A stretch of 64,000 nucleotides of DNA from an uncultured delta proteobacterium (GCA_963712115.1 CAVQGX010000026.1:32001-96000), one strand, 5' to 3'. Counted from the stretch's first letter, positions 4,883-39,266 are shown. Translations and numbers: made by a program. The notes: a model not told the origin generated them from the letters alone.

Positions 4883-4888
4883 AAAACC

Positions 4889-7582: not shown

Positions 7583-7583
7583 A

Positions 7584-7826
7584 ATGCCAGAGGCGCAATG
7601 CGCCTCTGGCATAAATCCGAAATCCCAATTTCTAAATCCCAAACAAATTCGAATTACCAAAATACAAAATTAAAAACGGGAAAAATCAATGGCCAGATTC
7701 TCAGCATAGTCGTTTGCCTGCAGAATTAGGGTTGCGCGACCTTTTGAGCATTGAATATTTGAAACTGGGGCCCCACCCAAAGGGTGGGGAGTCCGGAGGA
7801 CAATTTGGAATTTGTTTCGGATTTAG
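7584..7826. repeat. AAATCCN/GGATTT-type inverted array with perfect hairpins
   Basis: Perfect hairpin ATGCCAGAGGCGC-AAT-GCGCCTCTGGCAT, then AAATCCG/AAATCCC units, hairpin CCCCACCC-AAA-GGGTGGGG, and mirror arm GGAATTTGTTTCGGATTT. Confidence 0.65.
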
Positions 7827-7853
7827 CTGAATAGAGAATGGCCCTGGGAAACA

Positions 7854-7882
7854 TTGACAATTGGGGCATGGGACGATAAACT
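7854..7882 (+). promoter_or_regulatory. sigma70 promoter of the putative ncRNA
   Basis: TTGACA(7854)-N17-TAAACT(7877). Confidence 0.8.
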
Positions 7883-7889
7883 AAAAAAT

Positions 7890-8221
7890 GAGCTTGCCAG
7901 GGGCAGGCACAGAAACTGCGTCCACGGAGCGCCGCGCCACCTAATAAGAAGACGGCTAGGCACGCAGGGACGTGCCCCTGAAGGAGTTGCTCCTTCCGGA
8001 ATTCTTCTGGAAGGAGAGCGACCCCGGCACCACGAGAGTCCCTGCCCTCTCGGGTGTCCGTACTGTGGCAGGGTAGTGCTCAGAATCCACTCGCAGACCT
8101 GAGCGCGAGAGTAATGCGGGTTAGGCCCGACCAGAAAAATGTAACCAGGCCATCTGGCGGGCGACGAACTGTCTGGTATTTTGGACGGCAATCAGTTTCT
8201 GTGCCTGTCCCTGTTGGGCTC
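7890..8221 (+). ncRNA. Unidentified ~330-nt structured RNA with three tandem pseudoknots (tmRNA pk2-4-like) and no tRNA-like domain
   Basis: 5' and 3' ends pair over about 30 bp; three H-type pseudoknots at 8025-8177; own promoter and terminators; no credible ORF. Confidence 0.75.
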
Positions 8222-8226
8222 GAGAG

Positions 8227-8298
8227 AAAAACCACCCGCTGAGGGGTGGTTTTTTTAATCCTCCTCTAGCTAAGGCAAAAATAGCTAGGGGTTTTTTT
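8227..8298 (+). terminator. Two tandem intrinsic terminators (the first may be bidirectional)
   Basis: AAAAACCACCC-gctgag-GGGTGGTTTTTTT, then CCTCTAGCTA...TAGCTAGGGG-T7. Confidence 0.8.
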
Positions 8299-8329
8299 GT
8301 TGACCTATCTCCCACTCTTAAAGATAGGA

Positions 8330-8647
8330 TCAGGACTTCTCTTCTTTTTTGATTTTTCCTAGCTCCGACTTAAGTTGTTCAACTTCTTCCTTGTACTTTT
8401 CTGCCTCTTCTTTGTACTTGGGGGCTTCATCGGTGTCCAGAGTTGATGAAAACTCATCCTCTTTCTTGCTGAAATAAGGAAGCTTGTCTTTCACCTCGTC
8501 AAAGCCAAGGTAAGCAGCAATAACACCACCAAACAACAGCATTACAGGCAGTCCCCCTGCGACCAGCAGCAGGAATGCATCCCACCAAACAAGCAAGAGT
8601 ATGACCCCCAGTACAGCTGCAACAATCCCACCGACAAACACCGCCAT
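8330..8647 (-). CDS. Small two-TM membrane protein with charged coiled-coil tail
   Basis: AAGGAGG RBS; two hydrophobic helices; KYKEEAE repeats. Confidence 0.85.
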   Translation of the reverse strand: MAVFVGGIVAAVLGVILLLVWWDAFLLLVAGGLPVMLLFGGVIAAYLGFDEVKDKLPYFSKKEDEFSSTLDTDEAPKYKEEAEKYKEEVEQLKSELGKIKKEEKS

Positions 8648-9036
8648 GCCATTTCCTCCTTCTTGTAGATACCACGAAATTTAGCGGCTACCGAAAAAGA
8701 GCGTGAAAGGCCGCCCATTCCATACTGATGGCACGAAAACTCCTCCCGTATACCATGAGCATCAGGGGATTGCAAGACAATTTTACCCTCTTTAACAAGG
8801 CGCTATTGATATGGTCGCAAATAGCTTGTCCAATAATGTACTTTCGCTTTTATGAGGTCTAATCGGTACACGGTAAAAGTCCACTTTTTTCCGAAAACCC
8901 CTTTACAAGAAGAGCTTTTCTCTATACAATCAGCCCATCTCTAGGTCTGGTCCGGTTTAGCTGTGGATCAGGTATTTGTTGGAATCAGGGATTGTCTAAA
9001 TTAAGTGTTTAAACTCAAGCAACAAGGGTGGTGCTT

Positions 9037-10353
9037 ATGGCTAAACCATCAAAAAAAGGTGCAAAATCGGAAGCCGAAGTTGCGGCAGAGGCAAACAGGA
9101 AAAAAGAGATCCTTGATAAGGTGGCTCAGTCCAACCTGCCCACCAAGACGATTTTGAAGGAGTTGGGCATTTCCAGGTCCACCTATTACAGCTGGCTCAA
9201 GCGCTACGAAGAGGAAGGGGAGGAGGGACTGCTGGACAGTCGCTCACAGGCGCAACCAAGCGAGGAAAAAGTAGAAGCAGCCCCTGCGGTTGAAGAGGCC
9301 GAATCCCAACCTCCGGTGCAGGCGGAACCGGTGGCCGAAGAAGTGAGGGAGGAAAAGGTCGAACCTCCAACAGTGGAGGAACCCAAGGTGAAGCCTCCAG
9401 AGCCGGTTTCCCCGCCATTGGCGAAGGAGCCCAAGGCAGTGGAAAAAGTAAGCAGACCATCTCCAACTCCCCCACTTAGTGGGGGTGAAGCTAAAAAGGG
9501 CCTTGGCGGCTATGCCTTCGTCGCTGTATTGCTCTTGGCAATCGGTCTGTTAGTGAGCATTAGTCTCAGCAATTACAACACCTATAAGCTGGTTAAGAAC
9601 AACAACACCGTCACACTATGGAAGGGTAAGTTTGCTCCCCGTGGTTTTGAAGTGGTGGAGTCCTTCGAGCCGGTAGTGGTTGGGGACAGTGACGTAAGTG
9701 GGTTGACCAACAAGCTCTACACTGGCAAGGCTGCTGTTTATAAAGCCATCTTTGGTTTTTATATGGACCAAGTAACCGGAGAGACTTCCAAAGGTGACAA
9801 GGCAGACATGAGCATGATCAGCCTACTCCTCGACAGGGCAGAGAATTTTATGGATGGCAACGGCAAAGAGGAAGATAGTCTGGCGACAATGCGTTTCAAC
9901 TTGGCCCAACAACGGGTTGCCATGGCAGAATTAGGGTTGCAAAAGGCTTATCAAAAGGCACTGCCGATTTACCAGGAAGCGCTTAAGGCCGGCTTGGCAG
10001 ATAGCGCCATGCTGGAAGCCAAAGTAGAAACCATGCAAAAAACATTGGGACTTGCTCCGGTTCTACCACCAGACGAAGAAGCTGAGACTGCTCCGGCGGA
10101 GGAAACAATCATCAAGGAACCTGCGGCTACTGCCACCCCGGAAGAAAAACCAGCCGAAGTAGTTGTGGCTCCTCAAGAGGAAGGCAAACAAGGGGAAACT
10201 GGAGTCAAGGTAGAGCCAGCTGCCGAAGCCGGCGAGGATGTCAAAGAGGAAACGGGAACAAAAGTTACCACGGAGCCGGCCAAAGATGAGGAGACCAACG
10301 AGAAGCCCAGCGGTTTTAAGGAGTGGCTGAAATCGAAACGATCCCAGTTGTAG
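9037..10353 (+). CDS. Bitopic membrane protein: N-terminal transposase-like HTH, Pro/Glu linker, TM and extracytoplasmic domain
   Basis: ILKELGISRSTYYSWLKRY...GLLD HTH; TM YAFVAVLLLAIGLLVSISL; upstream TTTACA-N17-TACAAT (8902-8930). Confidence 0.85.
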   Translation: MAKPSKKGAKSEAEVAAEANRKKEILDKVAQSNLPTKTILKELGISRSTYYSWLKRYEEEGEEGLLDSRSQAQPSEEKVEAAPAVEEAESQPPVQAEPVAEEVREEKVEPPTVEEPKVKPPEPVSPPLAKEPKAVEKVSRPSPTPPLSGGEAKKGLGGYAFVAVLLLAIGLLVSISLSNYNTYKLVKNNNTVTLWKGKFAPRGFEVVESFEPVVVGDSDVSGLTNKLYTGKAAVYKAIFGFYMDQVTGETSKGDKADMSMISLLLDRAENFMDGNGKEEDSLATMRFNLAQQRVAMAELGLQKAYQKALPIYQEALKAGLADSAMLEAKVETMQKTLGLAPVLPPDEEAETAPAEETIIKEPAATATPEEKPAEVVVAPQEEGKQGETGVKVEPAAEAGEDVKEETGTKVTTEPAKDEETNEKPSGFKEWLKSKRSQL

Positions 10354-26009: not shown

Positions 26010-27008
26010 CTAAAAGAGCTGCAGCTCCAGCTTAAGCAAACTGCTTCTTTGGCCTAAGGCGATAAGAGTATCGCCAATTTGAATAGTAGTGTGGGAAGCA
26101 GGGTTAAATAACATTGTGCCGTCGGCCTTTTTTATGGCCACAATAATTAGATCTAGCTCTTTACGGATACCTGAATCAACCAACGCCACATCTGCCAATT
26201 TACTTTGCGGTCTAACTGGAATCTCCTCCATCCCCATGCCAGTGCCTGGATCGTGGGTGGCAAAGTCAATAAACTCCGTGACGTTTGGCCGAAGCAAGGC
26301 CTGAGCCATTCGGTAGCCACCGATTTGGTGGGGCGACACCACGTGGTTGGCGCCCGCCTGCACAAGCTTTTTCTCAGAGCCTATTCTTCCGGCTCGGGCA
26401 ATTATGAATAGGTTTGGTTTCAGTCCTTTGGCGGTTAGGGTTATATAGACATTGTCTGCCTCTGAATCCAGGGCGGTTGCCAATCCCTTAGCACTTCGAA
26501 TACCAGCCTTGAGAAGGCATTGCTCCTCTGTGGCGTCGCCGAGTAAATATAGATGGCCGTCTTCTTCTATCTTGGCGGTAACAGTGCTGTCATTGTCGAT
26601 CACCACCAAGGGAGTTGGTTTGGATCTGTAGATTTCTTCGCAAATAATGCGGCCTACACGTCCATAACCGCAGATGATGATATGATTCTTAAGTTTTTCA
26701 ATCTGACGTTCCAATTTTTTCCTCCCCATAATTCGGAGCAGCTGTCCCTCAACCACGATCTGGGTGAGTGTACCGACAAGATAGCCCACCACACCTAAAC
26801 CCGAAATCAGAATGGTCATTGTTAGTATACGACCTTGGTCGCTAACTGGATTGACTTCGCTAAAGCCGACGGTGGTGAGAGTAATCACAGTCATGTAAAG
26901 AGAATCTAAAAAATTCCACTTCTCGAGAATCATGTAACCGACTGTACCCATGCTAACAACCAGAAATAGCATAACGGCAGCGAATATTAAGTTGCGGGTT
27001 TTTGTCAT
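26010..27008 (-). CDS. Potassium channel protein with RCK (TrkA-N/C) domains
   Basis: TTVGF filter and GYGRVG Rossmann motif. Confidence 0.93.
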   Translation of the reverse strand: MTKTRNLIFAAVMLFLVVSMGTVGYMILEKWNFLDSLYMTVITLTTVGFSEVNPVSDQGRILTMTILISGLGVVGYLVGTLTQIVVEGQLLRIMGRKKLERQIEKLKNHIIICGYGRVGRIICEEIYRSKPTPLVVIDNDSTVTAKIEEDGHLYLLGDATEEQCLLKAGIRSAKGLATALDSEADNVYITLTAKGLKPNLFIIARAGRIGSEKKLVQAGANHVVSPHQIGGYRMAQALLRPNVTEFIDFATHDPGTGMGMEEIPVRPQSKLADVALVDSGIRKELDLIIVAIKKADGTMLFNPASHTTIQIGDTLIALGQRSSLLKLELQLF

Positions 27009-27083
27009 AGTTTCGTCACGTGCAGGTTACCGTGGAAACCCCCTGTTTATAGTGGGTGACGCAGCAGACGACTGGTTATTTTG

Positions 27084-27785
27084 TCAGGCTGGTTGGGATG
27101 CGAGAATCTCCACACTATAGTCACTGAGCTGGGTCAGTTCGGGTAGATCGCCAAAAGGTACGGTGAAGGAGACCTCTTGACGGGATCCTATCTCCTGCGC
27201 CTGATCCTTGGTGGCGGGCTGAGTCTGAACAAAAGCCAGTAAATTTTCCAGGGGCATGCTCTGCAATTGCTGGTTAGATAGAATATTGCCGGCGTAAAAA
27301 TCCAGTTGCCGCGCCGTTTGACCGTCGCTGGTATAAATTTTGGCACGCAAGTGAATCCAGCGGAGAGGTTTGGGGAATTCGTTACGTACCCTCCCTTGGA
27401 TGACAAAAAGCTGCCCGGCATTCTGGTTGTCAACAAAGTAGCCGCGGGTTTCCACCAAATGAAGCTGCTCGATACCTGTGCTCTTCTCGACGGGTTTAGG
27501 CTTTAAGGGCCACGGTACATAGAGCCACAGAGCTATACTGCCTGCAATTAAGAGTAGTGGGATGAGGAAAAGGAGCAGACGTCTACTGGAGGTTTTTCGC
27601 CTTGAGGGTGGGGGGCTTTTCACCTCTTGAGAAACTAGTGCCGCCTCCATGACATCAAGCTTCTCAGGGCGTGAGACGGTGAAAACATGTTGGCAGCTGG
27701 AACAACGGACTCTGACAGCCGGCCGGTTGATGAGATCTGGATTTAGTTTGAATTTCTTGTTGCACTGTTCACACTGAACAATCAT
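27084..27785 (-). CDS. MJ0042-type zinc-ribbon / DUF3426-like membrane protein
   Basis: CEQC...VRCSSC..F, a TM helix, and LFVIQGRVRN. Confidence 0.85.
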   Translation of the reverse strand: MIVQCEQCNKKFKLNPDLINRPAVRVRCSSCQHVFTVSRPEKLDVMEAALVSQEVKSPPPSRRKTSSRRLLLFLIPLLLIAGSIALWLYVPWPLKPKPVEKSTGIEQLHLVETRGYFVDNQNAGQLFVIQGRVRNEFPKPLRWIHLRAKIYTSDGQTARQLDFYAGNILSNQQLQSMPLENLLAFVQTQPATKDQAQEIGSRQEVSFTVPFGDLPELTQLSDYSVEILASQPA

Positions 27786-27836
27786 ACCTAGACCTCGTTG
27801 CTTTCGATACGGTCCGTGTGACGGCGTAAACTTGGG

Positions 27837-28361
27837 CTACAAAATCAGCTCATAAATGCCAGGTAGCTGGCGGTTGGCTTCATTGCAGTCTAGGCCATAG
27901 CCAACAACGAAGCCCTTTTCCAGCTGCAATCCAACGTACTCCAGCGGGATGGACACGGTGCGCCGCTCTCTCTTATCTAAGAGGGTACAAATCTTCACCG
28001 AACGCGGCTTTTTGCTTGCCAGGTGTTTTTTCAAAAATGCCGTAGTTAGTCCAGAGTCTACAATGTCCTCCACAATAAGGACGTCACGACCCTGCAAATC
28101 AAGTTCAACATCTGTGGTGATTCTAATCTTGCCGCTTGACTCTGTGCCAGGACCGTAACTGGCCACTCGAATAAAGTCCAACTGTACTGGTATGGTCAGT
28201 TGGCGCACCAGATCAGCAAGAAAGATAAAAGCACCTTTGAGAACCCCTATGAGTACAACCTCTTTGCCCTCATAGTCTTGAGAGATCCGGTTTGCCAGCT
28301 GTTGAACCTGACGGGCAATTTTTTCGGCGGTAAATACCACACGCTTTTCGTGCTTATTCAT
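27837..28361 (-). CDS. hpt: Hypoxanthine phosphoribosyltransferase
   Basis: VLIVEDIVDSGLT and FVVGYGLD. Confidence 0.95.
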   Translation of the reverse strand: MNKHEKRVVFTAEKIARQVQQLANRISQDYEGKEVVLIGVLKGAFIFLADLVRQLTIPVQLDFIRVASYGPGTESSGKIRITTDVELDLQGRDVLIVEDIVDSGLTTAFLKKHLASKKPRSVKICTLLDKRERRTVSIPLEYVGLQLEKGFVVGYGLDCNEANRQLPGIYELIL

Positions 28362-28466
28362 ACTCCGACCTGTGGCCGCTGGCAGAAGACTCAATTATCC
28401 CGCATCTATAACTAGCTTAGATATGAGGATCTTGTCAACTATTTTGAAAACTTAGGCGTTCTAGTC

Positions 28467-28579
28467 ACTAGATACTGGATACAAGGCAGCAACAAATCTC
28501 CCATACGTCTTGACCCAGGGAAAATCGCAAATGTATCATCTAGCATCCAGCATCCAGTATCAAGCATCGAGCATCCAGC
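28467..28579. repeat. GATACTR/YAGYATC heptamer array
   Basis: CTAGATA-CTGGATA facing TAGCATC-CAGCATC-CAGTATC-AAGCATC-GAGCATC; the same family occurs at 57618-57690. Confidence 0.7.
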
Positions 28580-28589
28580 TCATTTCACA

Positions 28590-28618
28590 TTGACATCTCG
28601 GGGCTAGAGTTGCTACTT
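28590..28618 (+). promoter_or_regulatory. Putative sigma70 promoter for the NtrC-type gene
   Basis: TTGACA-N17-TACTTT. Confidence 0.55.
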
Positions 28619-28672
28619 TCAGACCAGTGAGGCAACAAACTGCCAACTCCCATTGGTAGACGTTGTCAGGCA

Positions 28673-28813
28673 TAACCGCAGAGATCACAAAAGGATAATT
28701 TGAGATTTTAGATTGTAAGATTGCAGATTGCGAAATTCTCTAGTTCCTACTTTTGTCAATCTGCAATCTTCAATCTACAATCTCAAATTATCCTTTTGCG
28801 ATCTCTGTGGTTA
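28673..28813. repeat. Near-perfect 141-nt palindrome with a GATTGCA heptamer core
   Basis: Arms of about 58 nt differ at about 4 positions. Confidence 0.9.
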
Positions 28814-28876
28814 AATTCCCTCCTTCGATGGTGGGTTGGGCTGGAGCGAAGAACAGCGCAGAACTGTGATAGAGAT

Positions 28877-30280
28877 ATGAGTAAGGATAAATCCATAAAA
28901 GCCAAGATCCTTGTTGTTGATGACGAACAGGGGGCTAGGGATGCCCTACAGGTCATTCTTGAGGATGATTATGAGGTGACCACTGCTGCTGGTGGGCAGG
29001 AGGCAATCGCATATTGTGAGGGTTTTGATTACGATTTAGTTTTTTTGGACGTCGCCATGCCAGAGCTTGATGGCATTGCCACCTTAAGAAGGCTTCGCAC
29101 CATGGACGAGCCCATGGACGTTGTTATGATCTCAGCATCGGACAAAGCGGACAAGGCGGTGGAGTCTATCAAGCTTGGTGCTTATGACTATATCACCAAG
29201 CCTTTTGAGCCTGACGATATACTATCGGCGGTGGATCGGGTTCTGGAGAAACAAACCTTGCAGAGAGAAGTCCGTTATCTGCGCTCTGAAATAGCCCACA
29301 GATATGGGGAACTGGAGATTGTGACAAGGGATTCAACGGTACTGGATATCTTGCAACTTGTAAACAAGGTGGCAAGCGCCGCTAGTTCCGTTCTTATTAC
29401 CGGCGAAAGCGGCACTGGCAAAGAACTGATAGCCAGATCGCTGCACCAGCACGGCGACCGCTGCAAGGCTCCTTTTGTGGCGATTAATTGTGCTGCAATT
29501 CCCAGTGAACTAATGGAGAGCCAACTTTTCGGCCACGAAAAAGGGGCTTTCACCGGGGCCCACACTCGCACCATTGGGAAGTTCGAGCACGCCAATGGCG
29601 GGACCATTTTTTTGGATGAGATTTCGGCCCTTCGCCCTGAGCTGCAGGCGAAACTCCTCCGGGTTATCCAGGACAAAGAGATCGTGCGGCTCGGCAGTAA
29701 CCGGACTATAAAAGTGAACGTCCGTATCCTGGCCGCTACTAATACCAATCTGGAGGACCTTATAGAGGAGGGCAGCTTTCGGCGGGATCTCTACTTTCGG
29801 CTCAATGTCATCCCCATTTATCTCCCGCCTTTGCGCGAGCGGGAAGGCGATGTAAGACTCCTGGCTCAACACTTCCTTAACAGGTTCAACCTGCAGCTGA
29901 AGCGGGAAATGAAGGGTTTTACCGACAAGGCTATTGAAACCCTAGAGCGCTACCCGTGGCCCGGGAACATCCGTGAGTTGGAAAATTTGATCGAGAGACT
30001 GGTCGTACTGGGACGGGAGGGCGACTACATATCATATGAAGACCTGCCATTGGAAATCCTCCTGGATTCCAGCCTTATGACAGAGACTCCCCCCTTGGGA
30101 GATGGATTGCTTCAGGCCCGGGACAATTTCGAGAAGCAATACATCCTCAAAGCCCTGAAAAAGGCGGAGTGGAATCAGAGCGAAGCCGCCCGCATTCTCA
30201 GAATTCATCGGAATACCCTAATCCAAAAAATGAAATCCCTGGCGATCAAGGAATCACCTTCCGCAAGCCCCGCTAAATAG
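28877..30280 (+). CDS. Sigma54-dependent response regulator (REC-AAA+-HTH, NtrC/AtoC family)
   Basis: VVDD..FLD..KPF receiver; GESGTGKE, GAFTGA and WPGNIREL; Fis-type HTH. Confidence 0.96.
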   Translation: MSKDKSIKAKILVVDDEQGARDALQVILEDDYEVTTAAGGQEAIAYCEGFDYDLVFLDVAMPELDGIATLRRLRTMDEPMDVVMISASDKADKAVESIKLGAYDYITKPFEPDDILSAVDRVLEKQTLQREVRYLRSEIAHRYGELEIVTRDSTVLDILQLVNKVASAASSVLITGESGTGKELIARSLHQHGDRCKAPFVAINCAAIPSELMESQLFGHEKGAFTGAHTRTIGKFEHANGGTIFLDEISALRPELQAKLLRVIQDKEIVRLGSNRTIKVNVRILAATNTNLEDLIEEGSFRRDLYFRLNVIPIYLPPLREREGDVRLLAQHFLNRFNLQLKREMKGFTDKAIETLERYPWPGNIRELENLIERLVVLGREGDYISYEDLPLEILLDSSLMTETPPLGDGLLQARDNFEKQYILKALKKAEWNQSEAARILRIHRNTLIQKMKSLAIKESPSASPAK

Positions 30281-30325
30281 TCTTCCTCCTCAATTCACCT
30301 AGCATGACTAGTCACTCGGCAGTAA

Positions 30326-30695
30326 ACACTAGGCACAAAGGCGGTGAGAAGTCAGAGGTCGGAAGTCGGAGGTCAGCAAGGACAGACGACAGAGGTCGGA
30401 GGTCACGTCTGATAATCTAAGATAAAGAGTCTACTAGCTAATAGTCAGTAGGAGTGGCATAGGGCATAGAGTAAATCCCCATGCCTAAAGCCCCTAACTC
30501 TAGGCGCTCTGCGCTCTACGCTTTGCGTCTGTAACAACGGACTACGGACCACGGACAACTGACAAAAAGCCAGATGCCCGCTGCCTGTTTAGCCGGTTTA
30601 GCCGTTGGCCATCAGCCCAGAAAAGAATTCCACCTTCCGCGTTCCGACTTCCGCCGTTAAATCCTCGTTTCGCCCGACCTCCCGTTTCGCCGGAG
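30326..30695. repeat. Composite heptamer/octamer array
   Basis: GTCRGAR, GCATAGR, GCTCTRC, ACNACGG, TTTAGCCG, TTCCGMN and GTTTCGCC blocks. Confidence 0.75.
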
Positions 30696-30714
30696 TGCTT
30701 TGCACTCTGCGAAC

Positions 30715-30751
30715 TGCACATTAGCCTGGGCAATGCACAAGATCATGTGCA
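30715..30751. promoter_or_regulatory. Putative tandem enhancer (UAS) for the sigma54 activator
   Basis: TGCACA-N6-TGGGCA and TGCACAAGATCATGTGCA; 14/18 match at 34818-34835. Confidence 0.55.
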
Positions 30752-30937
30752 GTGGCTAGACAAAGCCTGAACTCTTCACAACCTTCCATGGGTAATGCTC
30801 TATATTTTCCAGGCCAGACTATCTTAGACACTGTGCAAACCTATCTGGCAACTAGGAATTTGTCTTCTCTCCAACTGCAATTAATTATTCTGTAATCTCA
30901 TAAGTATAGACGCCAATTCCTCCCCTATTGTCCCCTC

Positions 30938-30953
30938 TGGTACCGACCTTGCT
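30938..30953 (+). promoter_or_regulatory. sigma54 -24/-12 promoter
   Basis: TGGTAC-CGACC-TTGCT with correct GG-N10-GC spacing. Confidence 0.7.
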
Positions 30954-31017
30954 CTTACTCCCCCCATCTCAGAAACGGGGCACAAATCCTTTACACATAT
31001 GAGAGGAGGGAGAGGCA

Positions 31018-31120
31018 ATGAAAAAGACTAAGAGGATTTTGCTGCAACTACTCATTACTGGAAGCATTATTGCTATGTATGTTCTGCCGGCGCTGGCAAG
31101 CAGGGGGCGGGGGCGCCTAA
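31018..31120 (+). CDS. Small signal-peptide precursor (33 aa if a 1-nt insertion is corrected; 63 aa to 31209 as written)
   Basis: Strong RBS GAGGAGG; MKKTKR-hydrophobic-PALA signal sequence; then GGG GGC GGG GGC GCC TAA one base out of frame; terminator directly after. Confidence 0.65.
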
Positions 31121-31151
31121 TCACGACCAACGTGTGGTTGGTTGGTGTAAG

Positions 31152-31184
31152 AAGCATAGTCCTTTGGGGCTGTGCTTTTTTTTT
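31152..31184 (+). terminator. Intrinsic terminator after the peptide gene
   Basis: AAGCATAGTCC-loop-GGGCTGTGCTT followed by a T-run. Confidence 0.8.
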
Positions 31185-31275
31185 GCAAACTGTCGGAAAG
31201 CTGGTATAGTAAGTATTTCATAGAGCCAAGATAGACGTCTAATTGGTAGACAAATCAGACACGGGATTAAAGCTC

Positions 31276-32892
31276 ATGAAAAGACTACTGTTGCCGTTCG
31301 CTGTTATACTGATGCTTATCATCAGCTGCCAACAGGAGCCTACCGGAACCCCAACGAGTTCAACCGAAGCCACGATAGGCGGTGTCTACCGAGCTGCCCT
31401 TCCCTGGAGTCCGACGAATCTCTGGATCCGCGCCTTCACCACGGATATCTACTCGGTAACTCTAATCCAACAGATCTTTGACGGCTTAGTTCAGTTCGAC
31501 AAGAATCTCAATGTAGTCCCGAGCCTCGCCAGCTCTTGGAAAGTATCGCCGGATCGGCCTTACTTACACGTTTACTCTCCGAGAAGATGCCAAATTTCAC
31601 AACGGCCGACAGGTGACAGCTGACGATTTCGTCTATTCATTTACCCGCATCCTGGATCCAGAGGAGCCAGCAGGCGCACTAAGCTTCTTTGAAAGAGTTA
31701 AGGGGGCGGCGATCCTACCGAAATGGGAAGAGTAAAGAAGTTGCTGGTCTCAAGGCCCTTGATGCTCACACCCTGGAGATAACTCTCAGATGAACCTTTT
31801 GCACCGTTTCTGTCCAGTGTTGGCCATGGCGATTCCAAGGTGGTTGCCCCGAGAAGAGGTCGAACGGTGGGGCAAGGAATTTGGCCATCACCCGGTGGGC
31901 ACAGGTCCCTTCCGCTTGGAGTCTTGGGAAGGGAATCAGATTGTGCTCAGTGCAAATCCTGATTACCACGAAGGCAGACCTTATTTGGATCGAGTTCGTC
32001 TACACCATCTATGCGGGTGCGCAACGAAAGAAGATCCTGCAGGATTTTTAGGAGGACCGCTTGGAAGAAGCGCTAGTCTTCGGAGCAGATCGAGAGGAAA
32101 TGGCCAAGTCAGCCGTCTATCAGTTCGTCAGGAAGCCCAGTCTGAGCCTGCAGTTTTACGGAATGAATTGCGACCAATTCCCCGTTGAAAGATAGACGGG
32201 TACGGCAGGCTCTGAGTTGGGCCATCGACAAAGAAGAAATCGTTCGTGAGGTGTTCAAAGATCAATTCATTCCTGCGGAAACAATCCTGCCGCCCGGCAT
32301 GACCGGCTATACTCCGGAAAACGCCGCCTACGGTTATGATCCTGAAAGGGCCAAAGAACTCCTTGCTGAAGCCGGGTATGGTCCATCACAAGAAAAGCTG
32401 TCATTGACTCTCCTGTCTGCTTCGAAATCAAACGTGGCCCAGAAGAGAATTGGCCATGGTAGCAGCGGACTTAGCTGATGTGGGAGTTGAACTTCAAATC
32501 CAATACGAAACAGATTGGCCCACCTTTGAAGGCAGCTCTCAGATCAACGGAAAGTTCCAGATTGTATCGGTACTTCTGGTCTGCTGACATTCCGGATCCC
32601 GACAATTTTGTCAATGTACTATGCGGCTCAGACTCTCAGTACAACTTCATGCGCTACAACAACCCCAAAGTGGATCGCCTCCTTGCCCAGGCTCTGGCAG
32701 AAACCGATATTATCAAACGGGTGAGGCTGTATCGGGAGGCTGAGAGTATGATCTTGGAGGATGCTCCAATGATTCCCTTTATGTATTGGGTCTTCGAGTC
32801 CGTTTTTCAACCTTACGTCAAGGGCCTGGAGATTAGTGCTCTAGGACAGCCCATACATTCCTCTGAAAAAGATCTGGCTCGATAAGCACTAG
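31276..32892 (+). CDS. Family-5 (OppA/DppA-like) solute-binding lipoprotein, fragmented by several frameshifts
   Basis: Lipobox IISC; IFDGLVQFD, LASSW, PVGTGPF, VRQALSWAID, YDPERAKELLAEAG and DAPMIP spread over consecutive frames. Confidence 0.85.
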
Positions 32893-32967
32893 TCGTTCTT
32901 TTCTACCCCTTCATGTGCGTCATCGCCAGTTCACCGAAGTCTAACGACCATCAACGGACAGCGCTGA

Positions 32968-34792
32968 ATGTCCTGGTTTGCCCGAAAAATACGTTTGAAG
33001 ACTCGATTCATGGTCGCTATCGGCACAGTTCTTTTTGCGCTAATGGCGATTATTGTTTTGCTGGTGGGGAATCGGTCCACCCGGATCATTAAACAGGAGG
33101 TGGAGGCCCGCGGTCTTGCTGTGGCCCGCAGCATCGCTGCTGTCTCCACTAATGCTCTAGTAACATACAATTACATTACCTTGGAACAGAACGCCGAAAA
33201 GGCCGGCCAGGGCACTGATATTGTCTATGTCATTGTCCTCGATAAAGAGGAGAAAGTAGCTGCATTTAGCGGTCACAGCGGCTGGCAAGGGAATTATTTG
33301 GACGATCCGGTGAACAAAAAAGCTCTGGCTGCCAAGAGGCCGGTTATCCAGTCTGTTTTGTGGGAAGAAACGGGTGAGCGGGTACTGGATATAGGTGTGC
33401 CAGTTTTCATCTCTAGTTCTGACATGAAATGGGGCACCGTTCGAGTGGGACTTTCTCTTGAGCGCATGTATTGGCAAATTAGACGGACCCAATTGGTTCT
33501 GGTGGGAATTGGCACAGTGGCTCTAATATTAGGACTTGCCGGAGCCCATGTCATGGCCAGCCGTATCACCCAACCATTGGGCCAATTAGCCAACGCCACA
33601 ATCGCTGCCGCCGAAGGTGACCTAGATCAGCGGCTAGATATCCACACCAGAGATGAGGTAGAGGATCTTGCCAACAGCTTCAACACCATGATCAGTGAGA
33701 TTTTGGATCAGCGGGTGCAACTGGAGCAGCGTTTCAATGAAATCTTAGAACTCAAAGCCTATAACGATATAGTTTTGGCTTCCATGACCAACGGCTTGAT
33801 AACCCTGGATTTGGGTTCACGGATTGTTAGTGCCAATGGCGCAGCAGAATCCATACTGGGGCTGGAGGGCAGGCACTGGCAGGGGATAAGTTTCCGTGAC
33901 CTGTGGCCTAAAGACAACTCACTAGTTCGATTGCTGCAAAAATGTCTACAAAGTCAGACTCCTTGCCGTAACCAGGAAATCTCATTGGACACGGGCGAGG
34001 GAAAGCAGCGCACCCTCATGGTGAACACCTCTTTCCTAGAAGATGGAAGGGAGGAAACAATGGGGGTGTTAGTAGTGATAAACGACATTACAGAGGTAAA
34101 GGCCCTGGAGGCTCGAATGCGGCAGAGTGACCGACTGGCCGCTCTAGGTACACTTTCAGCCGGACTTGCCCACGAAATCAGAAACCCGCTCTCTGCCATC
34201 AAAACCTTTGTCCAGCTTTTGCCGAGAAAGATCTCAAATCCCGCCTTTTTTGATAAGTTTCAGACCACCGTACCCCGCGAGTTGAACCGGATCAACGATC
34301 TCATAGAGAGCCTACTGGAATTAGCACGACCACCCAAGCTCGAATTTAAGATGACCTCATTTAAGTGGTTGTCTCTCCCAGGTAGAAGATCTCTATCGAG
34401 ATAAGCTTGAGGCAGCCAACATCACCCTTGAAATTAGCCAAGAAGAATCTTTGCCGGAACTCTGGGCCGACAGGGAACACTTGGTACGGGCATTATCCAA
34501 TATCGTGGTAAACGGTCTAGAGGCCATGCCTGAGGGAGGCAACCTCACCGTCACCGCTGAAGAACAGGCAGGAGGGGTGGTACTTCAGTTCACCGACACC
34601 GGTGTAGGCATGGACGAGGCCACCAAAGATAAGATATTCAACCCTTTCTTCACCACCAAAGACACAGGCACAGGGCTTGGCCTGGCCATGACGCACAAGA
34701 TCATCCAGGAGCACGGCGGCGATATTGAGGTTGACAGTTTGGTTGGCAAGGGAACTACCTTTACCTTGAGATTTCCTGGAGTGCAAGGATGA
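32968..34792 (+). CDS. Sensor histidine kinase (TM-periplasmic-TM-HAMP-PAS-HisKA-HATPase), one frameshift near 34361
   Basis: AHEIRNPL; N, G1, F and G2 boxes in the downstream ORF. Deleting one T joins both as ...TSLSGCLSQVEDLYRDK... Confidence 0.92.
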
Positions 34793-34933
34793 ACTGTGCC
34801 CACAATAGTGGTGCCACTGTACATGATCATAGGCATGCCACAATTGTCCTGCCCGAATCAATAAAAGGTTAGATACTGCCCATCTCCCATATTTAGAGCC
34901 TTCTTCCTCACCAGCGATTGTGATTCTCGACTC

Positions 34934-34949
34934 TGGCATTATCCTTGCT
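34934..34949 (+). promoter_or_regulatory. sigma54 -24/-12 promoter
   Basis: TGGCAT-TATCC-TTGCT; UAS-like 18-mer at 34818-34835. Confidence 0.7.
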
Positions 34950-34993
34950 GAGTATGAAAGTGAAGCATCCTATTTAGGAAAGGAGGCTGTGAC

Positions 34994-35359
34994 ATGGCAT
35001 ATTTAGATAAAGAAATAGTAGTGGTGGATGACGACCAGGGGATTCTGGAGTCATTTGATGCAATGCTTGGGGATGATTATCCATTGGTGACCTTGGACAA
35101 TGGGTTTGCCGCTATTGAATATGTGAAATCCCACAAACCCAGACTCGTCTTTCTAGACATAAAAATGCCAGGTATGAATGGTATGGAGGTGCTCAAAAAG
35201 TTAAGGCAAGATAAAGTGGAAGTAGCAGTGGTAATGGTTACAGCTACGACCCAAAGCCATTACGAGAGCGAGGCGGAGGAGTTGGGCATAACCGCTTATC
35301 TGCGCAAACCTTTTGAGATTGATGAGGTGGAAGATATCACGAGACGAGTGCTACATTGA
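34994..35359 (+). CDS. Single-domain response regulator
   Basis: VVDDD, FLDIKMP, VTA and KPF; AGGAGG RBS. Confidence 0.95.
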   Translation: MAYLDKEIVVVDDDQGILESFDAMLGDDYPLVTLDNGFAAIEYVKSHKPRLVFLDIKMPGMNGMEVLKKLRQDKVEVAVVMVTATTQSHYESEAEELGITAYLRKPFEIDEVEDITRRVLH

Positions 35360-35441
35360 CTATTTAAGATTGGAGATTTAAGATTGCAGATTGCAACTTA
35401 GCGATGATATCTCTTGTTTTCTCGTTCTTGAGGAAAAATCT

Positions 35442-36227
35442 TCAATCTACATTCCGCAATCTCAAATTCTCTTGGCATTCCTCCAGAAAACCCTGCCATT
35501 GTTGAAAATATTTAGAGCCACCCACTACGTAAGTATCGTTGTGCCCCGACTGTGGAACCAAGTAAAATCGTTTTGGGGCCCGTGCAGTCTGATATAGCCG
35601 TTGCGCCATCTCTAGCGGGATAGCTTCGTCGTATTCACCATGTATGAAGAGAAGGGGGGCTTGGATCAGGTCAATTTTGCCTATGTTGTCATAAGCGGAC
35701 TGGCTAAGCTCGGGAGGAATCGCTCCCAAAAAATAGCGCTTTAACATGTCTTGGGAGGAGGTAAAAGCAGCCTCGAGCACCGCGCCAAGACAAGGTTCGC
35801 TACAAGCTAGATCCACGGCCAGGGCCGTACCCAATGAACGACCGAAGAGCAGAATGTCAGTTGGCTCAAGCATACGCTCCCTGACCAGATAGTTCCAAGC
35901 ACCTCTGGCATCGAGGTAAGTGCCAGCCTTGGAAATGTGGCCAGCGCTCAGGCCAAACTCCCGGTAATCAAAGATGAAAATTGAGATATTCAGATAGCGG
36001 TGAAGGAGTGCGAGATTTTCCAATCTGTGGCTTATATTGCCGGCATTGCCATGAAACCACAGGAGGGTAGTGTTTTCCCCAGGATCTGAGGAGGGCACGA
36101 ACCAACCATGTAACCGAATACCGTCTGCAGCTGAGAAAAAGACGTTTTCGTACTCTAGACGAAATTCTTTTGGTGTTCCCTCTAGCTGCCGCATGGGGAA
36201 AAAGATCAAACCTTTTTCAGAGAGCAT
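35442..36227 (-). CDS. Alpha/beta hydrolase
   Basis: FHGNAGN, GRSLG, HGEYD and GHND. The C-terminus runs into a GATTGCA/GCAATCT array (35364-35468). Confidence 0.93.
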   Translation of the reverse strand: MLSEKGLIFFPMRQLEGTPKEFRLEYENVFFSAADGIRLHGWFVPSSDPGENTTLLWFHGNAGNISHRLENLALLHRYLNISIFIFDYREFGLSAGHISKAGTYLDARGAWNYLVRERMLEPTDILLFGRSLGTALAVDLACSEPCLGAVLEAAFTSSQDMLKRYFLGAIPPELSQSAYDNIGKIDLIQAPLLFIHGEYDEAIPLEMAQRLYQTARAPKRFYLVPQSGHNDTYVVGGSKYFQQWQGFLEECQENLRLRNVD

Positions 36228-36310
36228 GGCTGATTCCAGTGTCTGGTTACAGGGCAGATTAAAAAACACAGAGAGCACAATTCAGAACAAAGCCGAAATA
36301 AATTCAAGCT

Positions 36311-36462
36311 GGATGTGAGATGTGAGATCTGAGATGTGAGAATCAAATTCAGGAATTTAGGGATTGAGGAATTCAGGGATTTTTCTAGACCAGGCTCAAT
36401 TCCTTAATCCCTTAATTCGCAATTCCTGAATGTCTACATCACATATCGCACATCCCACATCT
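36311..36462. repeat. Nested palindrome: GATGTGA arms outside, GGAATT octamer arms inside
   Basis: Block order A-B-spacer-B'-A'. Confidence 0.85.
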
Positions 36463-36498
36463 GTTGTTCAGTTTTCCATTTGCAAAAGATTTTTGCCC

Positions 36499-37848
36499 CT
36501 ATGATTGTGGTTCCAGAAGCTTTTTTGTTTTCTCCGCCAACTCCCGGAGCGTTTCGCCACTCATCCAGTAAGGGTGAGCTGTGTCGTCATCCTTAAAGAA
36601 CCAGAGCAGCCCTTTCTCTGTATTTTTCGAGGGAACTTCTGCCAGGAAAAATGTTCCGAGCTTCTTATCTTTTTCAGAATAAAGAACCAAGTCTAACCGT
36701 CTCTCTCCGGTAACCGGATCCACCTCAGGAAGACCGCCGGGTAAGTACTCCAGTTCCTGCATCTTCCAGAGTAGAGAATTGACCTGCCAGTTTTCAGGAT
36801 GTTGCCTGCTGTCGCCTGCCGCCCACTTCCATTTCTCCCCCTGGCGCTCAAGCCGCCCACTATCATCATTCAGTTTCAAACCGACAGCTTTTATTTGGTC
36901 CAAGTCGAAAGCGAGCAGGGTGCGATCCTCAAGGTCGCTGAGACTAACCGGGAGTTGCTCCAGTAACTTCTCGTCCACCAGGGCAACACCTGGCAATTCT
37001 CCTCCTTTGGCATAAATACCCTCTGCCTTTTTACTGTTGCCGAGGAGGAGAGTTTGGCTCTTATCTTTACTGGCGAGGCTGATTCTTATCCTGGCAGGCT
37101 CAAAACCAAGTTGGGGTAAATCGCTTTTTTCGTTGTCCAGAAACCTTTTTGCCCGTAGCCAGATCAAGCGACTGATAAGGCTCTCCACTTTAGAATTTTT
37201 AATGCTGACCTCAGGAAAAGCTGAGAGCTGCCAATTGTCCTTTGTCACTTTTGTCAAAGCAAGTTTTACCTCAGCACGCTCAATCTCAACCCGGTCTATC
37301 TCCTCACTTTTCAGAGAAAAAAATTCTTTACTACGCAAGTCAAAAATCTTCTTGTTCAGCCCTTGCTCCCGGCTGGCAGCGATTAGGACCACGCGATTTG
37401 GTTGGTCGCCGGAGGCGTAATACTGATCGGCCACAACCGCTTTGGCGCCAACACGCAAATGATGCCGGGTGCCATCCGCCAAGAAAGATAGATGGAGCCT
37501 TGGGTTGTCAAGACCATAAGGGTGAAGGTCTTGAGCTTCAGCCTCGACCTCCCGTTCCATCTTAAGAGACTCCAGGCTTGTTAGCAGACTTCCCACGGCG
37601 AATTCATCGGCGGCAGAATTTATCGGTTCAATTATTTGCCATTGGCCTTCTTTATTGAGCGTTATGGGGTTGCCTTGCCCTTTGTCTAATTGGAGAGAGG
37701 TGATTTTAGCTTTTTCCACTTGAAAAAGACGGAGGGCATCTTCTTTCTCTTCGGTGAGAGCATTGCGGCGCACTACCTCGAAGTAGTAAAAGTACCCAGC
37801 AAGCACTGCAAGAACGGCCAAATAGATAAGGGCAGTTCTGGTTTTCAT
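36499..37848 (-). CDS. DUF4340-like domain protein
   Basis: N-terminal TM, repeated W..P..AD/YGL..P pattern, typical position after a GldG-like gene; ATGA overlap. Confidence 0.85.
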   Translation of the reverse strand: MKTRTALIYLAVLAVLAGYFYYFEVVRRNALTEEKEDALRLFQVEKAKITSLQLDKGQGNPITLNKEGQWQIIEPINSAADEFAVGSLLTSLESLKMEREVEAEAQDLHPYGLDNPRLHLSFLADGTRHHLRVGAKAVVADQYYASGDQPNRVVLIAASREQGLNKKIFDLRSKEFFSLKSEEIDRVEIERAEVKLALTKVTKDNWQLSAFPEVSIKNSKVESLISRLIWLRAKRFLDNEKSDLPQLGFEPARIRISLASKDKSQTLLLGNSKKAEGIYAKGGELPGVALVDEKLLEQLPVSLSDLEDRTLLAFDLDQIKAVGLKLNDDSGRLERQGEKWKWAAGDSRQHPENWQVNSLLWKMQELEYLPGGLPEVDPVTGERRLDLVLYSEKDKKLGTFFLAEVPSKNTEKGLLWFFKDDDTAHPYWMSGETLRELAEKTKKLLEPQS

Positions 37849-39266
37849 CGGTGTTTTCTCCGCAGCCTGAATACTGTCAGACCGGATACCATAACTACCG
37901 CTGGCATCAAAAGCAGTCCCACCCAAAACAAAAGCTGGCTCTGCGAGCGACTGAGGGTTAGCGGCGTTCCCGAGGTCTTGGGACGTTCAACGGTGATAAG
38001 ATTTTCCTGTTGGGCTAGGTAGTTGATGGAGTTCAGGAAAAAGTCGGAATTCCCCTGCAGACTGAAGTAACTGTTGCTGGCAAAATCGCTGTCACCAAAA
38101 ACCAGTATTTGGGCCTGCCCTCCTGGGCTTTCTCCTCCAGCACCCTTAACAGCCTCTTGCTCATCGCTCTTTTGCCCATCCCCTGAGCTCTTGTTTGAGA
38201 TGGAGGCGACTAGCGCAACATTGATTGGACCCTTTTTGTCTTTGGCCTGGTCGAATTTCGGTGGCTCCGGTTGGCCAAACTGGAACTCGGTTTCAGACCA
38301 ACTATAAGGCGAGGTGGAGGCGAGCTCGGTCATATCGACGGAGGCAGGAATCTCCTTAGCCGAACCAATGGATCTTGCTGTGGGAAAGAAGCAGGCAACG
38401 TTAAAGCCGTCGGTAATCTTGTGGAAACTATACTCGGTGATAACTGGGATGAGATAGCTGGCACCAAAGACCCTACTCATGGTGTCCACAATAATGTCCG
38501 ATGAGATGGCGATCCCGTAGGACCTGAGAAAGTCACCCAGGCCAGCGTCAGAAAAAGGCTCAAGTAACAACATCAAGCTGCCATCTCGTCCGAGATATTG
38601 ACGCAAGGCTTCGAGCTCAGTGGCCATCAAGACCTTTTTGGGATCAGCTACAACCACAAGAGCAGCATCCTCGGGAATCTTGGGGACCTCCAGCAGGTTG
38701 AGCGTTTTCACCTGGAAGTTTTCCTTTTCAATGGCAGCCTTGGCAGTAGAATAACCGTCTTTATCAAAATTGCTAATGTCCCTGTCTCCATGACCAGTGA
38801 GAAAGTAGACGACCCTTTGTTTTTCCTGCGTCAGCTTCAAGATAGCGTTGGTAATAGATTCTTCATCCGCAGTGGTTATGGTTTGTGTCTTGCCGAAGCC
38901 CTCCAAAACCAAGGTTCCGTAGGTGCGAATCATGTAGTGTTTGGCCAGGCTAGGCTCCCGGTCTGGATCGATAAGCTGATAGTTGATCTTTTTGGAGTAA
39001 TATCTATAGGTCTCGAGCAAGTCACGGCTCTGGTCCCTGTTGGGATCAGCTTCCTGGTAAAAGCCTTTGATATTGATGTCGTCATTGAGTGCTTTGACAA
39101 CCTTTTGTGACTGTTCTGAGATGCTATATCGTTTACCTTCAGTAAGATCTAGCCGCAGTGGATGGCGTTGACCGATAAGGGCCGCAAAGGCCAAAATGCC
39201 AACGAAAGCAACAAAACCCAGGGCGGTACTGGACAATAGGGCAAGCTTTCCAGGCTTCTTTGTCAT
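37845..39266 (-). CDS. GldG-family ABC auxiliary component
   Basis: RLDLT, VYFLTGHG and VFGDSDF; C-terminal TM. Confidence 0.9.
   Translation of the reverse strand: MTKKPGKLALLSSTALGFVAFVGILAFAALIGQRHPLRLDLTEGKRYSISEQSQKVVKALNDDINIKGFYQEADPNRDQSRDLLETYRYYSKKINYQLIDPDREPSLAKHYMIRTYGTLVLEGFGKTQTITTADEESITNAILKLTQEKQRVVYFLTGHGDRDISNFDKDGYSTAKAAIEKENFQVKTLNLLEVPKIPEDAALVVVADPKKVLMATELEALRQYLGRDGSLMLLLEPFSDAGLGDFLRSYGIAISSDIIVDTMSRVFGASYLIPVITEYSFHKITDGFNVACFFPTARSIGSAKEIPASVDMTELASTSPYSWSETEFQFGQPEPPKFDQAKDKKGPINVALVASISNKSSGDGQKSDEQEAVKGAGGESPGGQAQILVFGDSDFASNSYFSLQGNSDFFLNSINYLAQQENLITVERPKTSGTPLTLSRSQSQLLFWVGLLLMPAVVMVSGLTVFRLRRKHR

Follow-up and report, generated by a model that had tools for sequence, protein, structure and literature searches.

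A locus at positions 28877–35359 of a 64,000-nt stretch of DNA from an uncultured delta proteobacterium (GCA_963712115.1 CAVQGX010000026.1:32001-96000; hereafter the window, whose full-length numbering is used throughout) is, judged by gene content and order, a member of a signaling cassette that is conserved in Desulfobacterota, among relatives of sulfate reducers, and has homologues in Methylomirabilota. The cassette looks like a peptide cell-to-cell signaling system of a kind undescribed for double-membrane bacteria. All of its parts are on the + strand: a gene for a sigma-54 activator, two regions with upstream activator sites and a sigma-54-type promoter, a gene for a very small, putatively exported precursor, a gene for a substrate-binding protein (SBP) of the SBP_bac_5 family, a gene for a membrane histidine kinase, and a gene for a lone receiver. 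A preliminary description of the window had named these parts and proposed that they form a peptide quorum-sensing circuit. We located every one of them, and the layout stands, but the description overlooked frameshifts that close the peptide, SBP, and kinase genes as assembled. That the cassette is an autoinduced circuit in which an exported hexapeptide is sensed through the SBP and the kinase is, in our assessment, evenly balanced between true and false.

The small precursor gene (31018–31120, + strand) lies behind a strong GGAGG-type ribosome site (31001–31015), and its conserved product is a putative 27-aa signal peptide followed by X-GGGG-X. In the window, one extra base near 31098 throws the conserved TAA (31118–31120) out of frame and the assembled open reading frame (ORF) continues to 31209; the conserved precursor is 33 aa rather than the 63 aa of the assembled ORF. 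Ten close relatives have a 33-codon ORF that reads MKK.KR, a hydrophobic stretch, ..Y-[AV]-L-P-A-L-A, [AQSE]-GGGG-[ATSFVP], and a stop. Across the family, the design is 30–33 aa with a signal peptide ending in P-[AV]-[LM]-A, then X-Gly4-X and the stop. Loci of other genera and families, found through the SBP at ∼40% identity, have the same gene order and one to four tandem 30-codon ORFs of the same design, and the number of tandem peptide genes ranges from 1 to 11 across loci. The largest array, in locus L128 (5546–7146, − strand), has eleven tandem genes (..RGGGGL) with a period of 160 nt and a transposase-like ORF (4104–5156) alongside. The signal-like part begins with MKK.. and has a hydrophobic core of ∼17–18 residues, Pro at −4, Ala or Val at −3 (53 of 53 genes), and Ala at −1 (53 of 53), although the Pro and Ala positions near the putative cleavage site are partly enforced by the search pattern. 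Within this part, Gln7, a Tyr near −7, and the Pro at −4 are conserved.

Codon usage indicates that the peptide is what is conserved. Across 53 distinct peptide genes, every Gly position shows all four synonymous codons, 211 of the 212 codons specify Gly, and a stop, which may be TAA, TAG, or TGA, comes directly after X6 in every gene; selection therefore acts on the peptide rather than on a G-rich RNA. Loci that were found by homology rather than by the peptide pattern are free of its bias. The small signal-peptide ORF is present in each of the 13 orthologous loci to which SBP homology alone led and in all three Desulfobacterota loci found by kinase homology; three of the homology-found loci have one Ala within the Gly run or an added Trp. 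The preliminary description had proposed a neighborhood search of this kind, with a scan upstream for short ORFs, and had named homologous loci lacking the small ORF as evidence against itself; the scan found the ORF throughout the SBP-found set, and all 42 scored loci keep the peptide–SBP order.

The peptide gene has a restricted distribution. Of 122 genomes of the class, 41 (from 13 of 31 genera) contain the DNA pattern P-[AV]-x-A-x-GGGG-x-stop, versus two hits for a reversed control. Among 401 sampled genomes of the phylum, three matched, all within the class, versus three control hits, and no genome of this sample outside the class was positive. A stricter pattern, applied to a set of 185,579 species with one genome each, gave 45 stretches, which all have Desulfobacterota-type titles (Syntrophobacteria, Desulfobacterales, or Deltaproteobacteria/Thermodesulfobacteriota). 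Cultured carriers are Desulfoferrobacter suflitae DRH4 (mature end CGGGGR) and Desulforhabdus sp. TSK (CGGGGN). Seven of ten exact peptide sequences are in public databases, all as "hypothetical protein"; Pfam and NCBIfam have no family for the small peptide and the ESM Atlas has only clusters without names. Variants with Cys first (..LPV[LM]A-C) were considered as lipoproteins, but Cys is in only 16 of 53 genes, so lipidation is not the common mechanism. In three loci of Desulfobacterales (L106, L107, and L138), a Trp apparently follows the sixth residue, as in ..SGGGGPW of L138; the DNA pattern matched in L106 and L107, yet the search that depends on the stop gave no peptide there.

The peptide, SBP, and kinase genes are constantly adjacent. 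In each of the 42 scored loci, the last peptide gene is followed within 900 nt by the start of an SBP homologue, and in all 38 loci that extend far enough the kinase gene comes next after the SBP. In Desulfobacterales, the activator and receiver may lie on the other side or the other strand; the peptide, SBP, and kinase genes remain together. A scan with the kinase alignment identified full-length relatives in a metagenome-assembled genome (MAG) of Methylomirabilota (L140) and in another MAG (L139), the two loci that the comparison covers beyond Desulfobacterota. In both, one or two SBPs (41–44% identical) and a kinase (36–37%) are behind small ORFs of 42–46 codons that have a signal-like start and end in ..NGGG or ..EGGGGGW. 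L139 has two tandem precursor ORFs (375–739), and L140 has a precursor ORF at 985–1113 and two tandem SBP genes before the kinase. That these precursors also end in a Gly run points to the C-terminus as the functional part, and the longer precursors of these two loci may need a further cut, by analogy with Phr precursors. A scan for related loci with one distant SBP as query gave no matches.

Features of the SBP are consistent with a peptide ligand. The gene (31276–32885, + strand) encodes an OppA/DppA-type lipoprotein with the lipobox ..LIISC and a linker of ∼20 residues after it; in the window, the gene is broken and Pfam matches fall on two pieces. Relatives have an intact gene of 534–539 aa, and the full-length family-5 domain is recovered in orthologue L012 (2.8e-94, profile positions 1–365), whereas the window yields fragments only. 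The nearest solved relatives are peptide binders, namely, 8upi (5.5e-72), HbpA, GsiB, DppA, OppA, MppA, and PrgZ (4faj, 4e-39), and NikA is more distant. Asp439 of the SBP is invariant in 35 of 35 sequences and aligns with chain residue 436 of DppA; this residue, Asp408 of DppA, is the one that we take to anchor the free alpha-amino group of the ligand. The Arg that clamps the carboxylate of the dipeptide in DppA is Ala in the cassette SBP.

The SBP is without an adjacent transporter, as first described: no BPD_transp_1 permease or oligo_HPY ATPase was found among the ORFs tested from 26010 to 39266, nor in the loci of relatives. The genome that carries the window (G000, 4.9 Mb) has three complete Opp/Dpp operons elsewhere, each with its own SBP. 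The preliminary description would have been weakened by an SBP that serves a transporter elsewhere or binds nickel; the three operons have their own SBPs and NikA is a more distant relative, and import through one of these transporters may still occur. Of the SBP_bac_5 genes in the genome, two stand alone beside sCache_3_2-HAMP sensors: that of the cassette and one paralogue. Because the paralogue is also paired with such a sensor, this SBP clade with an sCache sensor is, by its gene neighborhoods, a recurring module with different outputs. The paralogous module (L136, G000:C31:196000-209000; 3638–9712) consists of an Arc/PilZ protein, a secreted subtilase (Peptidase_S8), an sCache_3_2-HAMP-GAF-HD_5 sensor (HD-GYP-type), and an intact SBP_bac_5 protein that is 45% identical to the cassette orthologue. 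It has no X-Gly4-X ORF.

Joint variation of the peptide and the SBP is the best evidence here that the two work as a pair. Within the genus, the activator is the best conserved of the four proteins (mean identity of 0.89), followed by the receiver (0.86), the kinase (0.82; ∼0.87 for its sensor part), and the SBP (0.73). The Gly4 core is constant and the two end residues vary between strains along with the SBP, as in the QGGGGA and SGGGGT types. We compared 31 pairs of loci with activators at least 80% identical, of which 3 have the same mature peptide and 28 have different ones. Activator and SBP identities are similar in the same-peptide pairs (0.94/0.90, 0.96/0.96, and 0.93/0.86) and further apart in many of the 28 pairs with different peptides (for example, 0.98/0.82, 0.95/0.74, and 0.93/0.66). 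The divergence ratio is 0.98–2.05 in the former and averages 2.73 (range of 1.29–9.79) in the latter. In sliding windows over L011 and L067, identity is 0.91–0.96 over the activator and promoter, drops to 0.66–0.78 from the 3′ end of the peptide gene to the first third of the SBP gene, and returns to 0.89–0.96. Between L005 and L011, the block of low identity covers the whole SBP gene and stops at the start of the kinase gene; L005 and L007, which share a peptide, have no divergent block. A divergent block limited to signal and receptor, with conserved flanks, is the pattern of pherotype loci, seen here in few pairs that are related to each other, and it suggests that peptide and SBP diverge together. 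The preliminary description had proposed a test of covariation between peptide and pocket; column-wise mutual information gave no excess over kinase columns.

Promoter organization connects the activator to the peptide and the receiver. Ahead of the peptide gene, the activator sites TGCACA-N6-TGGGCA and then the palindrome TGCACA-N6-TGTGCA (30715–30751, + strand) are ∼190–220 nt upstream of a sigma-54-type promoter, TGGTAC-N5-TTGCT (30938–30953, + strand), that is invariant in 11 of 11 aligned sequences. Ahead of the receiver gene, a second activator site, TGTACA-N6-TAGGCA (34818–34835, + strand), matches the first at 14 of 18 positions and is followed by a second promoter, TGGCAT-N5-TTGCT (34934–34949, + strand), with GG and TTGC elements invariant in 9 of 9 aligned sequences. 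The 18-bp site type shared by both regions is TGYACA-N6-TRKGCA. Both promoters have GG at −24 and GC at −12 at fixed spacing (TGGCAC-N5-TTGCW) and are kept in relatives, and sigma-54 is encoded, which at the level of sequence defines them as predicted sigma-54 promoters. A regular expression finds 161 sigma-54-like sites in the genome, of which these two alone are preceded within 300 nt by the palindrome-like motif; the TGCACA-N6-TGTGCA of the first region is the sole strict palindrome of its kind in the genome. The combination exceeds what chance would give, and sequence and conservation show two predicted sigma-54 targets for the activator, the precursor gene (often in tandem copies) and the lone receiver. 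Across loci, 34 of 42 have a sigma-54-like site no more than 260 nt ahead of the first peptide gene, and 28 of 42 have the palindrome farther upstream.

The peptide gene appears to form a transcript of its own. Two hairpins and a U9 run follow it (31124–31184, + strand; RNA fold of −31.8 kcal/mol, z of −5.75), and an alignment of close relatives shows that a small hairpin is conserved and is followed by a terminator-like hairpin. Of 42 loci, 39 have a T-run no more than 140 nt after the last peptide gene. A simple consensus scan over 30600–31400 called no terminator; the call is based on fold and conservation. An Rfam search of 30200–31300 returned only two chance-level hits (E of 0.19 and 0.24), far under gathering scores. 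Directly after the terminator-like hairpin and ahead of the SBP-kinase unit, there is a sigma-70-like promoter (TTGCAA, 16 nt, TG-n-TATAGT; 31183–31210, + strand) with 9 of 12 matches and a TG extension (extended −10), which is conserved among close relatives. The SBP and kinase are therefore probably made independently of sigma-54.

The regulatory proteins at either end of the unit are intact. The activator gene (28877–30280, + strand) encodes an NtrC/AtoC-type protein with Pfam matches to Response_reg (2.7e-30), Sigma54_activat (1.1e-69), and HTH_8 (1.6e-13); it has the receiver, the AAA+ domain with the GAFTGA loop visible in translation, and the C-terminal Fis-type helix-turn-helix that define the NtrC class. 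Aligned to relatives across 1380–1415 nt, it has zero gaps and zero frameshifts. Its best NCBIfam model is AtoC at 461.6 bits, below the cut-off of 714, and its score against LuxO is 325.9 bits, below the cut-off of 800. The single-domain CheY-like receiver (34994–35359, + strand; Pfam Response_reg, 7e-26) is free of frameshifts and is the last gene of the unit; a convergent hydrolase gene adjoins it downstream.

The kinase gene (32968–34792, + strand) encodes, in order, a transmembrane segment, sCache_3_2, a second transmembrane segment, HAMP, PAS, HisKA, and HATPase_c. An extra base near 34359 splits it into an ORF at 32968–34404 (sCache_3_2, HAMP, PAS, and HisKA) and one in another frame at 34451–34792 (HATPase_c); in relatives, the gene is intact and encodes 607 aa. 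The protein has neither a receiver nor a histidine-phosphotransfer (HPt) domain, and its best NCBIfam model is AtoS at 348.1 bits, below the cut-off of 646. In a co-fold of the SBP with the periplasmic sensor domain of the kinase, the score was 0.55, versus 0.00 for the best of three controls; runs agreed in at least 96% of contacts and the predicted local distance difference test (pLDDT) score of the partner was at least 82. In the benchmark, 58 of 80 solved complexes and 2 of 110 mismatched pairs reached the mark, and at scores of 0.60 or lower only 7 of the 80 solved complexes pass, plus both passing mismatches. The preliminary description had suggested a co-fold of SBP, peptide, and sensor domain; this co-fold of the two proteins separates the pair from its controls but within a band of low scores shared with mismatches, and it weakly supports docking of the SBP on the sensor domain.

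Together, adjacency in 42 of 42 and 38 of 38 loci, promoters in 34 of 42, and the divergent block support the core idea of the preliminary description, that peptide, SBP, kinase, and activator are one signaling unit, with the peptide gene and the lone receiver as targets of the activator. Three points differ: the window's copy is broken in three genes as assembled, the precursor is the 33-aa product and not the 63-aa ORF, and the SBP and kinase genes have a promoter besides the sigma-54 one. In the mechanism that we propose, the Sec or YidC route would export the 30–33-aa precursor, and signal peptidase I would cleave it after P-[AV]-[LM]-A. The cut would free a hexapeptide, X-Gly-Gly-Gly-Gly-X, small and soluble enough to pass porins, and the Desulfobacterota form of the precursor would require no removal of a pro-segment. 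By our reasoning, a poly-Gly ligand would be soluble and a poor substrate of proteases, and would have its identity in its two ends. The hexapeptide would be bound by the transporter-less OppA/DppA-type lipoprotein, which keeps the Asp predicted to anchor the amino end, and the loaded SBP would dock on the periplasmic sCache domain of the kinase and alter phosphotransfer to the adjacent activator. The activator would then raise the output of peptide, closing a positive loop, and of the receiver, which may serve as an output or a damping arm, the latter perhaps as the phosphate sink of the preliminary description. A broader proposal is that the cassette represents a native ribosomal-peptide quorum sensing of diderms, in which signal peptidase releases an unmodified X-Gly4-X with end residues that act as strain dialects and a periplasmic OppA-like reader on an sCache kinase switches a sigma-54 activator, in at least two phyla; this we advance tentatively, as a possibility that falls somewhat short of an even chance.

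Several observations weigh against a sensed hexapeptide. Export, cleavage, secretion, and binding are predicted functions, as are the accumulation of signal outside cells and the density-dependent response that define quorum sensing, and the predicted outputs are limited to the peptide itself and a receiver of unassigned partner. The search pattern demands P, A, and Gly4, making the invariance partly circular in loci found with it. The co-fold passed within the weak band, the sCache domain of the kinase could bind a ligand of its own, and the three Opp/Dpp transporters elsewhere in the genome may leave room for import of the ligand. There is no SBP or kinase within 5.5 kb of the 11-copy array of L128. 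The pairs used to examine codiversification are interrelated and only three share a peptide, and fast evolution is common among periplasmic proteins in any case. Column-wise mutual information between the peptide ends and the SBP shows no excess over kinase columns, with means of 0.46 versus 0.45 for X1 and 0.58 versus 0.57 for X6. Last, in the window the sensing genes are broken as assembled.

Among other explanations, the small protein could be a private feedback partner, either an uncleaved signal-anchor with a Gly4 tail or a product that acts only on its own cell, which would tune the SBP-kinase complex in the way of MgrB and PhoQ, with an SBP that senses outside peptides. The length of the hydrophobic segment (∼17–18 residues) and the conservation of Gln7, the Tyr near −7, and the Pro at −4 exceed what a generic signal peptide needs, the invariant Gly4 core has a low information content, and the paralogous SBP-sensor pair adjoins a secreted subtilase and lacks such a peptide. 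Yet the invariant Ala at −1 and Ala or Val at −3 fit selection by signal peptidase (with the search pattern partly enforcing them), amplification to 11 tandem copies suits a released product, and the end residues shift together with the SBP block; we consider a feedback partner unlikely, though deserving of attention. It is improbable that the SBP and kinase respond to oligopeptides from the environment, as a sign of nutrients or prey, and that the small peptide is a product of the regulon with a role other than that of SBP ligand. The position of the SBP in a general peptide-binding clade, the sigma-70-like promoter of the SBP and kinase, and the secreted protease next to the paralogous pair are in keeping with an environmental cue, but this would leave unexplained both the invariant-Gly4 peptide whose gene immediately precedes that of this SBP clade in 42 of 42 loci, and also in another phylum, and the divergent block that joins the peptide end to the SBP. 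The small ORF might instead be a leader peptide, in which a ribosome at the four Gly codons controls hairpins and read-through into the SBP and kinase genes. Its stop is 4–6 nt ahead of the conserved hairpin and the terminator-like hairpin is next, but the use of all four Gly codons at each position without a rare-codon signature, the conservation of the signal-peptide part at the protein level, the tandem copies, the separate promoter of the SBP and kinase, and the lack of a link between downstream genes and glycine supply make a leader very improbable. The hydrophobic end of the signal peptide may itself be the pheromone, as in Enterococcus, but then an invariant Gly4 tail of fixed length has no explanation.

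The window's own copy poses a separate question. Because the peptide, SBP, and kinase genes are frameshifted, the sensing half of the cassette cannot be made as assembled. The SBP gene falls into six or more ORF pieces in shifting frames, and frameshift-aware alignment to orthologues places 11–13 events in it, with one double insertion, at most one deletion, and single-base insertions for the rest, most of them outside homopolymers. If these are real, the sensing half is a recently dead relic and the strain a signal-blind variant. Breaks confined to three sensing genes (one in the peptide gene, 11–13 in the SBP gene, and one in the kinase gene) would fit a relic: of 15 genes of the genome matched at 60% identity or more by ORFs of relatives of at least 250 aa, 14 are in one frame, and the sole exception is the kinase. 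An in-frame TAA is present in the SBP gene of one short-read relative (L030) and a +1 in that of another (L089). However, the events are nearly all single-base insertions and mostly not in homopolymers, and they are in the most strain-variable block of the locus, which is difficult to assemble. The gene also still looks selected. Read through, the SBP is 83% identical to those of L002 and L009 with one in-frame stop, and the ratio of nonsynonymous to synonymous substitution rates (dN/dS) is 0.11–0.12 relative to the nearest relatives, like the 0.09–0.19 of intact orthologue pairs, implying that the breaks are technical or very recent. Related public contigs, some ∼98% identical, do not have the extra bases at 31098, 32172/3, 32442, 32530, 32552, 32564, and 34359 where they cover these positions. 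Another SBP_bac_5 gene of the genome is also read in two frames. We therefore consider an error in consensus or assembly the probable cause and a real, very recent decay the lesser though substantial possibility.

Other sources of information on the breaks were less decisive. None of the public sequencing runs holds this strain (the best word share was 0.25), and parts of the SBP gene were uncovered. A genome-wide count of frame-hopping ORF chains was uninformative, with 5215 chains versus 5908 in the reversed control. The second SBP_bac_5 gene with an assembly frameshift (L219, G000:C11:38000-50000; 3420–5550) heads a complete Opp/Dpp operon. Recurrent natural loss of the SBP was considered and rejected. 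Of five other MAGs with broken SBP genes, L071, L083, and L084 have the activator or kinase gene broken too, which indicates general assembly error, leaving only L030 and L089 with one TAA and one +1, respectively. Sensor genes that vary between strains can be difficult to assemble and then be mistaken for pseudogenes.

A full-text literature search with abstract-level reach, and with subscription journals and supplements largely outside it, found no description of such a cassette, consistent with the statement in the preliminary description that no diderm system of this layout was known to it. By analogy, the design is like a cross between Phr/Opp signaling and either LuxPQ-LuxO-sigma-54 or an SBP-assisted two-component system of the AioXSR type. 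In Bacillus subtilis, a monoderm, Phr is made as a short Sec-type precursor with a signal in its C-terminal five or six residues, is imported by Opp through an OppA-type SBP, and acts on the cytoplasmic tetratricopeptide-repeat (TPR) receptor Rap. The cassette shares a short, predicted Sec-type precursor and the family-5 binding protein, but the mature part is X-Gly4-X, there is no adjacent permease, and a membrane kinase and sigma-54 activator are in place of Rap; no Rap/RRNPP TPR-receptor gene is beside the cassette, where the neighbors are activator, SBP, kinase, and receiver. The Vibrio LuxP-LuxQ-LuxU-LuxO-sigma-54-Qrr pathway senses autoinducer-2, relays phosphate via LuxU, and controls noncoding small transcripts with their own terminators. 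Both systems have a transporter-less periplasmic SBP, a membrane kinase, an NtrC-type activator, and very short sigma-54-driven transcripts with terminators. In contrast, LuxP is of another SBP family than family 5, the cassette kinase is without receiver and HPt domains, and the small transcript encodes the presumed signal.

Other known systems share single elements of the cassette. SBPs are cosensors of histidine kinases in AioX-AioS-AioR (in which AioR is a sigma-54 activator), TorT-TorS, ChvE-VirA, and the chitin-binding protein with ChiS (in Vibrio, a family-5 SBP), and the ligands are environmental: arsenite, trimethylamine N-oxide, sugars, and chitin oligomers. None of these systems is known to have a gene for a self-made exported peptide under its own promoter, which the cassette is predicted to have. 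In Enterococcus, the pheromones are hydrophobic peptides that originate from signal peptides; PrgZ passes them to the Opp permease, which imports them without participation of a kinase. PrgZ and TraC are, like the presumed role of the cassette lipoprotein, OppA-type lipoproteins dedicated to a short peptide pheromone, but they lead to import via Opp and the cassette has a kinase partner. AtoS-AtoC of Escherichia coli are the best models for kinase and activator and have equal domain orders, but scores are under the cut-offs and AtoSC has no binding protein or peptide gene. MgrB is an uncleaved inhibitor of PhoQ that functions without a binding protein; it is likewise a tiny membrane-targeted protein induced by the system it may act upon, but the cassette conserves a cleavage motif and an SBP. 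Without a Rap, a LuxP-type protein, or an environmental ligand, the cassette is outside each of the known types.

Linear ribosomal peptide pheromones are textbook biology in Gram-positive bacteria and, to our knowledge, hardly known in bacteria with two membranes. The cassette is a minimal candidate that can be tested, with a 30-aa precursor, a synthetic hexapeptide that can be purchased, a soluble presumed receptor, and a sigma-54 read-out that should work in E. coli. If the proposed mechanism is correct, the cassette would offer a handle on cell–cell signaling in syntrophic and sulfate-reducing communities and a natural example of codiversification of signal and receptor.

Additional variation is present around the unit. 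The genome has two full matches to sigma-54 (Sigma54_DBD; G000:C17:13955-14431 and G000:C58:2538-3014) and is rated 6% contaminated; the matches are either two rpoN genes or evidence of a second strain within the bin. In Syntrophobacteraceae, a receiver-HisKA-HATPase_c protein is encoded after the lone receiver (392 aa in L021, 12041–13219), with a gene at the matching place in L022–L027, L093, L137, and L142, which hints at an extra phosphorelay step missing from the window's genus. In L012, L011, and L002, inserts of ∼100–400 nt, absent from the window, separate the second sigma-54 promoter from the receiver start and are flanked by inverted repeats of the GCCCGG..CCGGGC type. The intergenic spacers that flank the cassette are packed with short arrays of various 7-nt units (CATCCAG, CAATCTA, GAAGTCG, GCGCTCT, ACAACGG, TTCCGCC, and AGATTGC) in three to six copies each, at 28537–28579, 28756–28783, 30348–30374, 30504–30565, 30628–30655, and 35362–35395, and public contigs of relatives break or diverge in these spacers.

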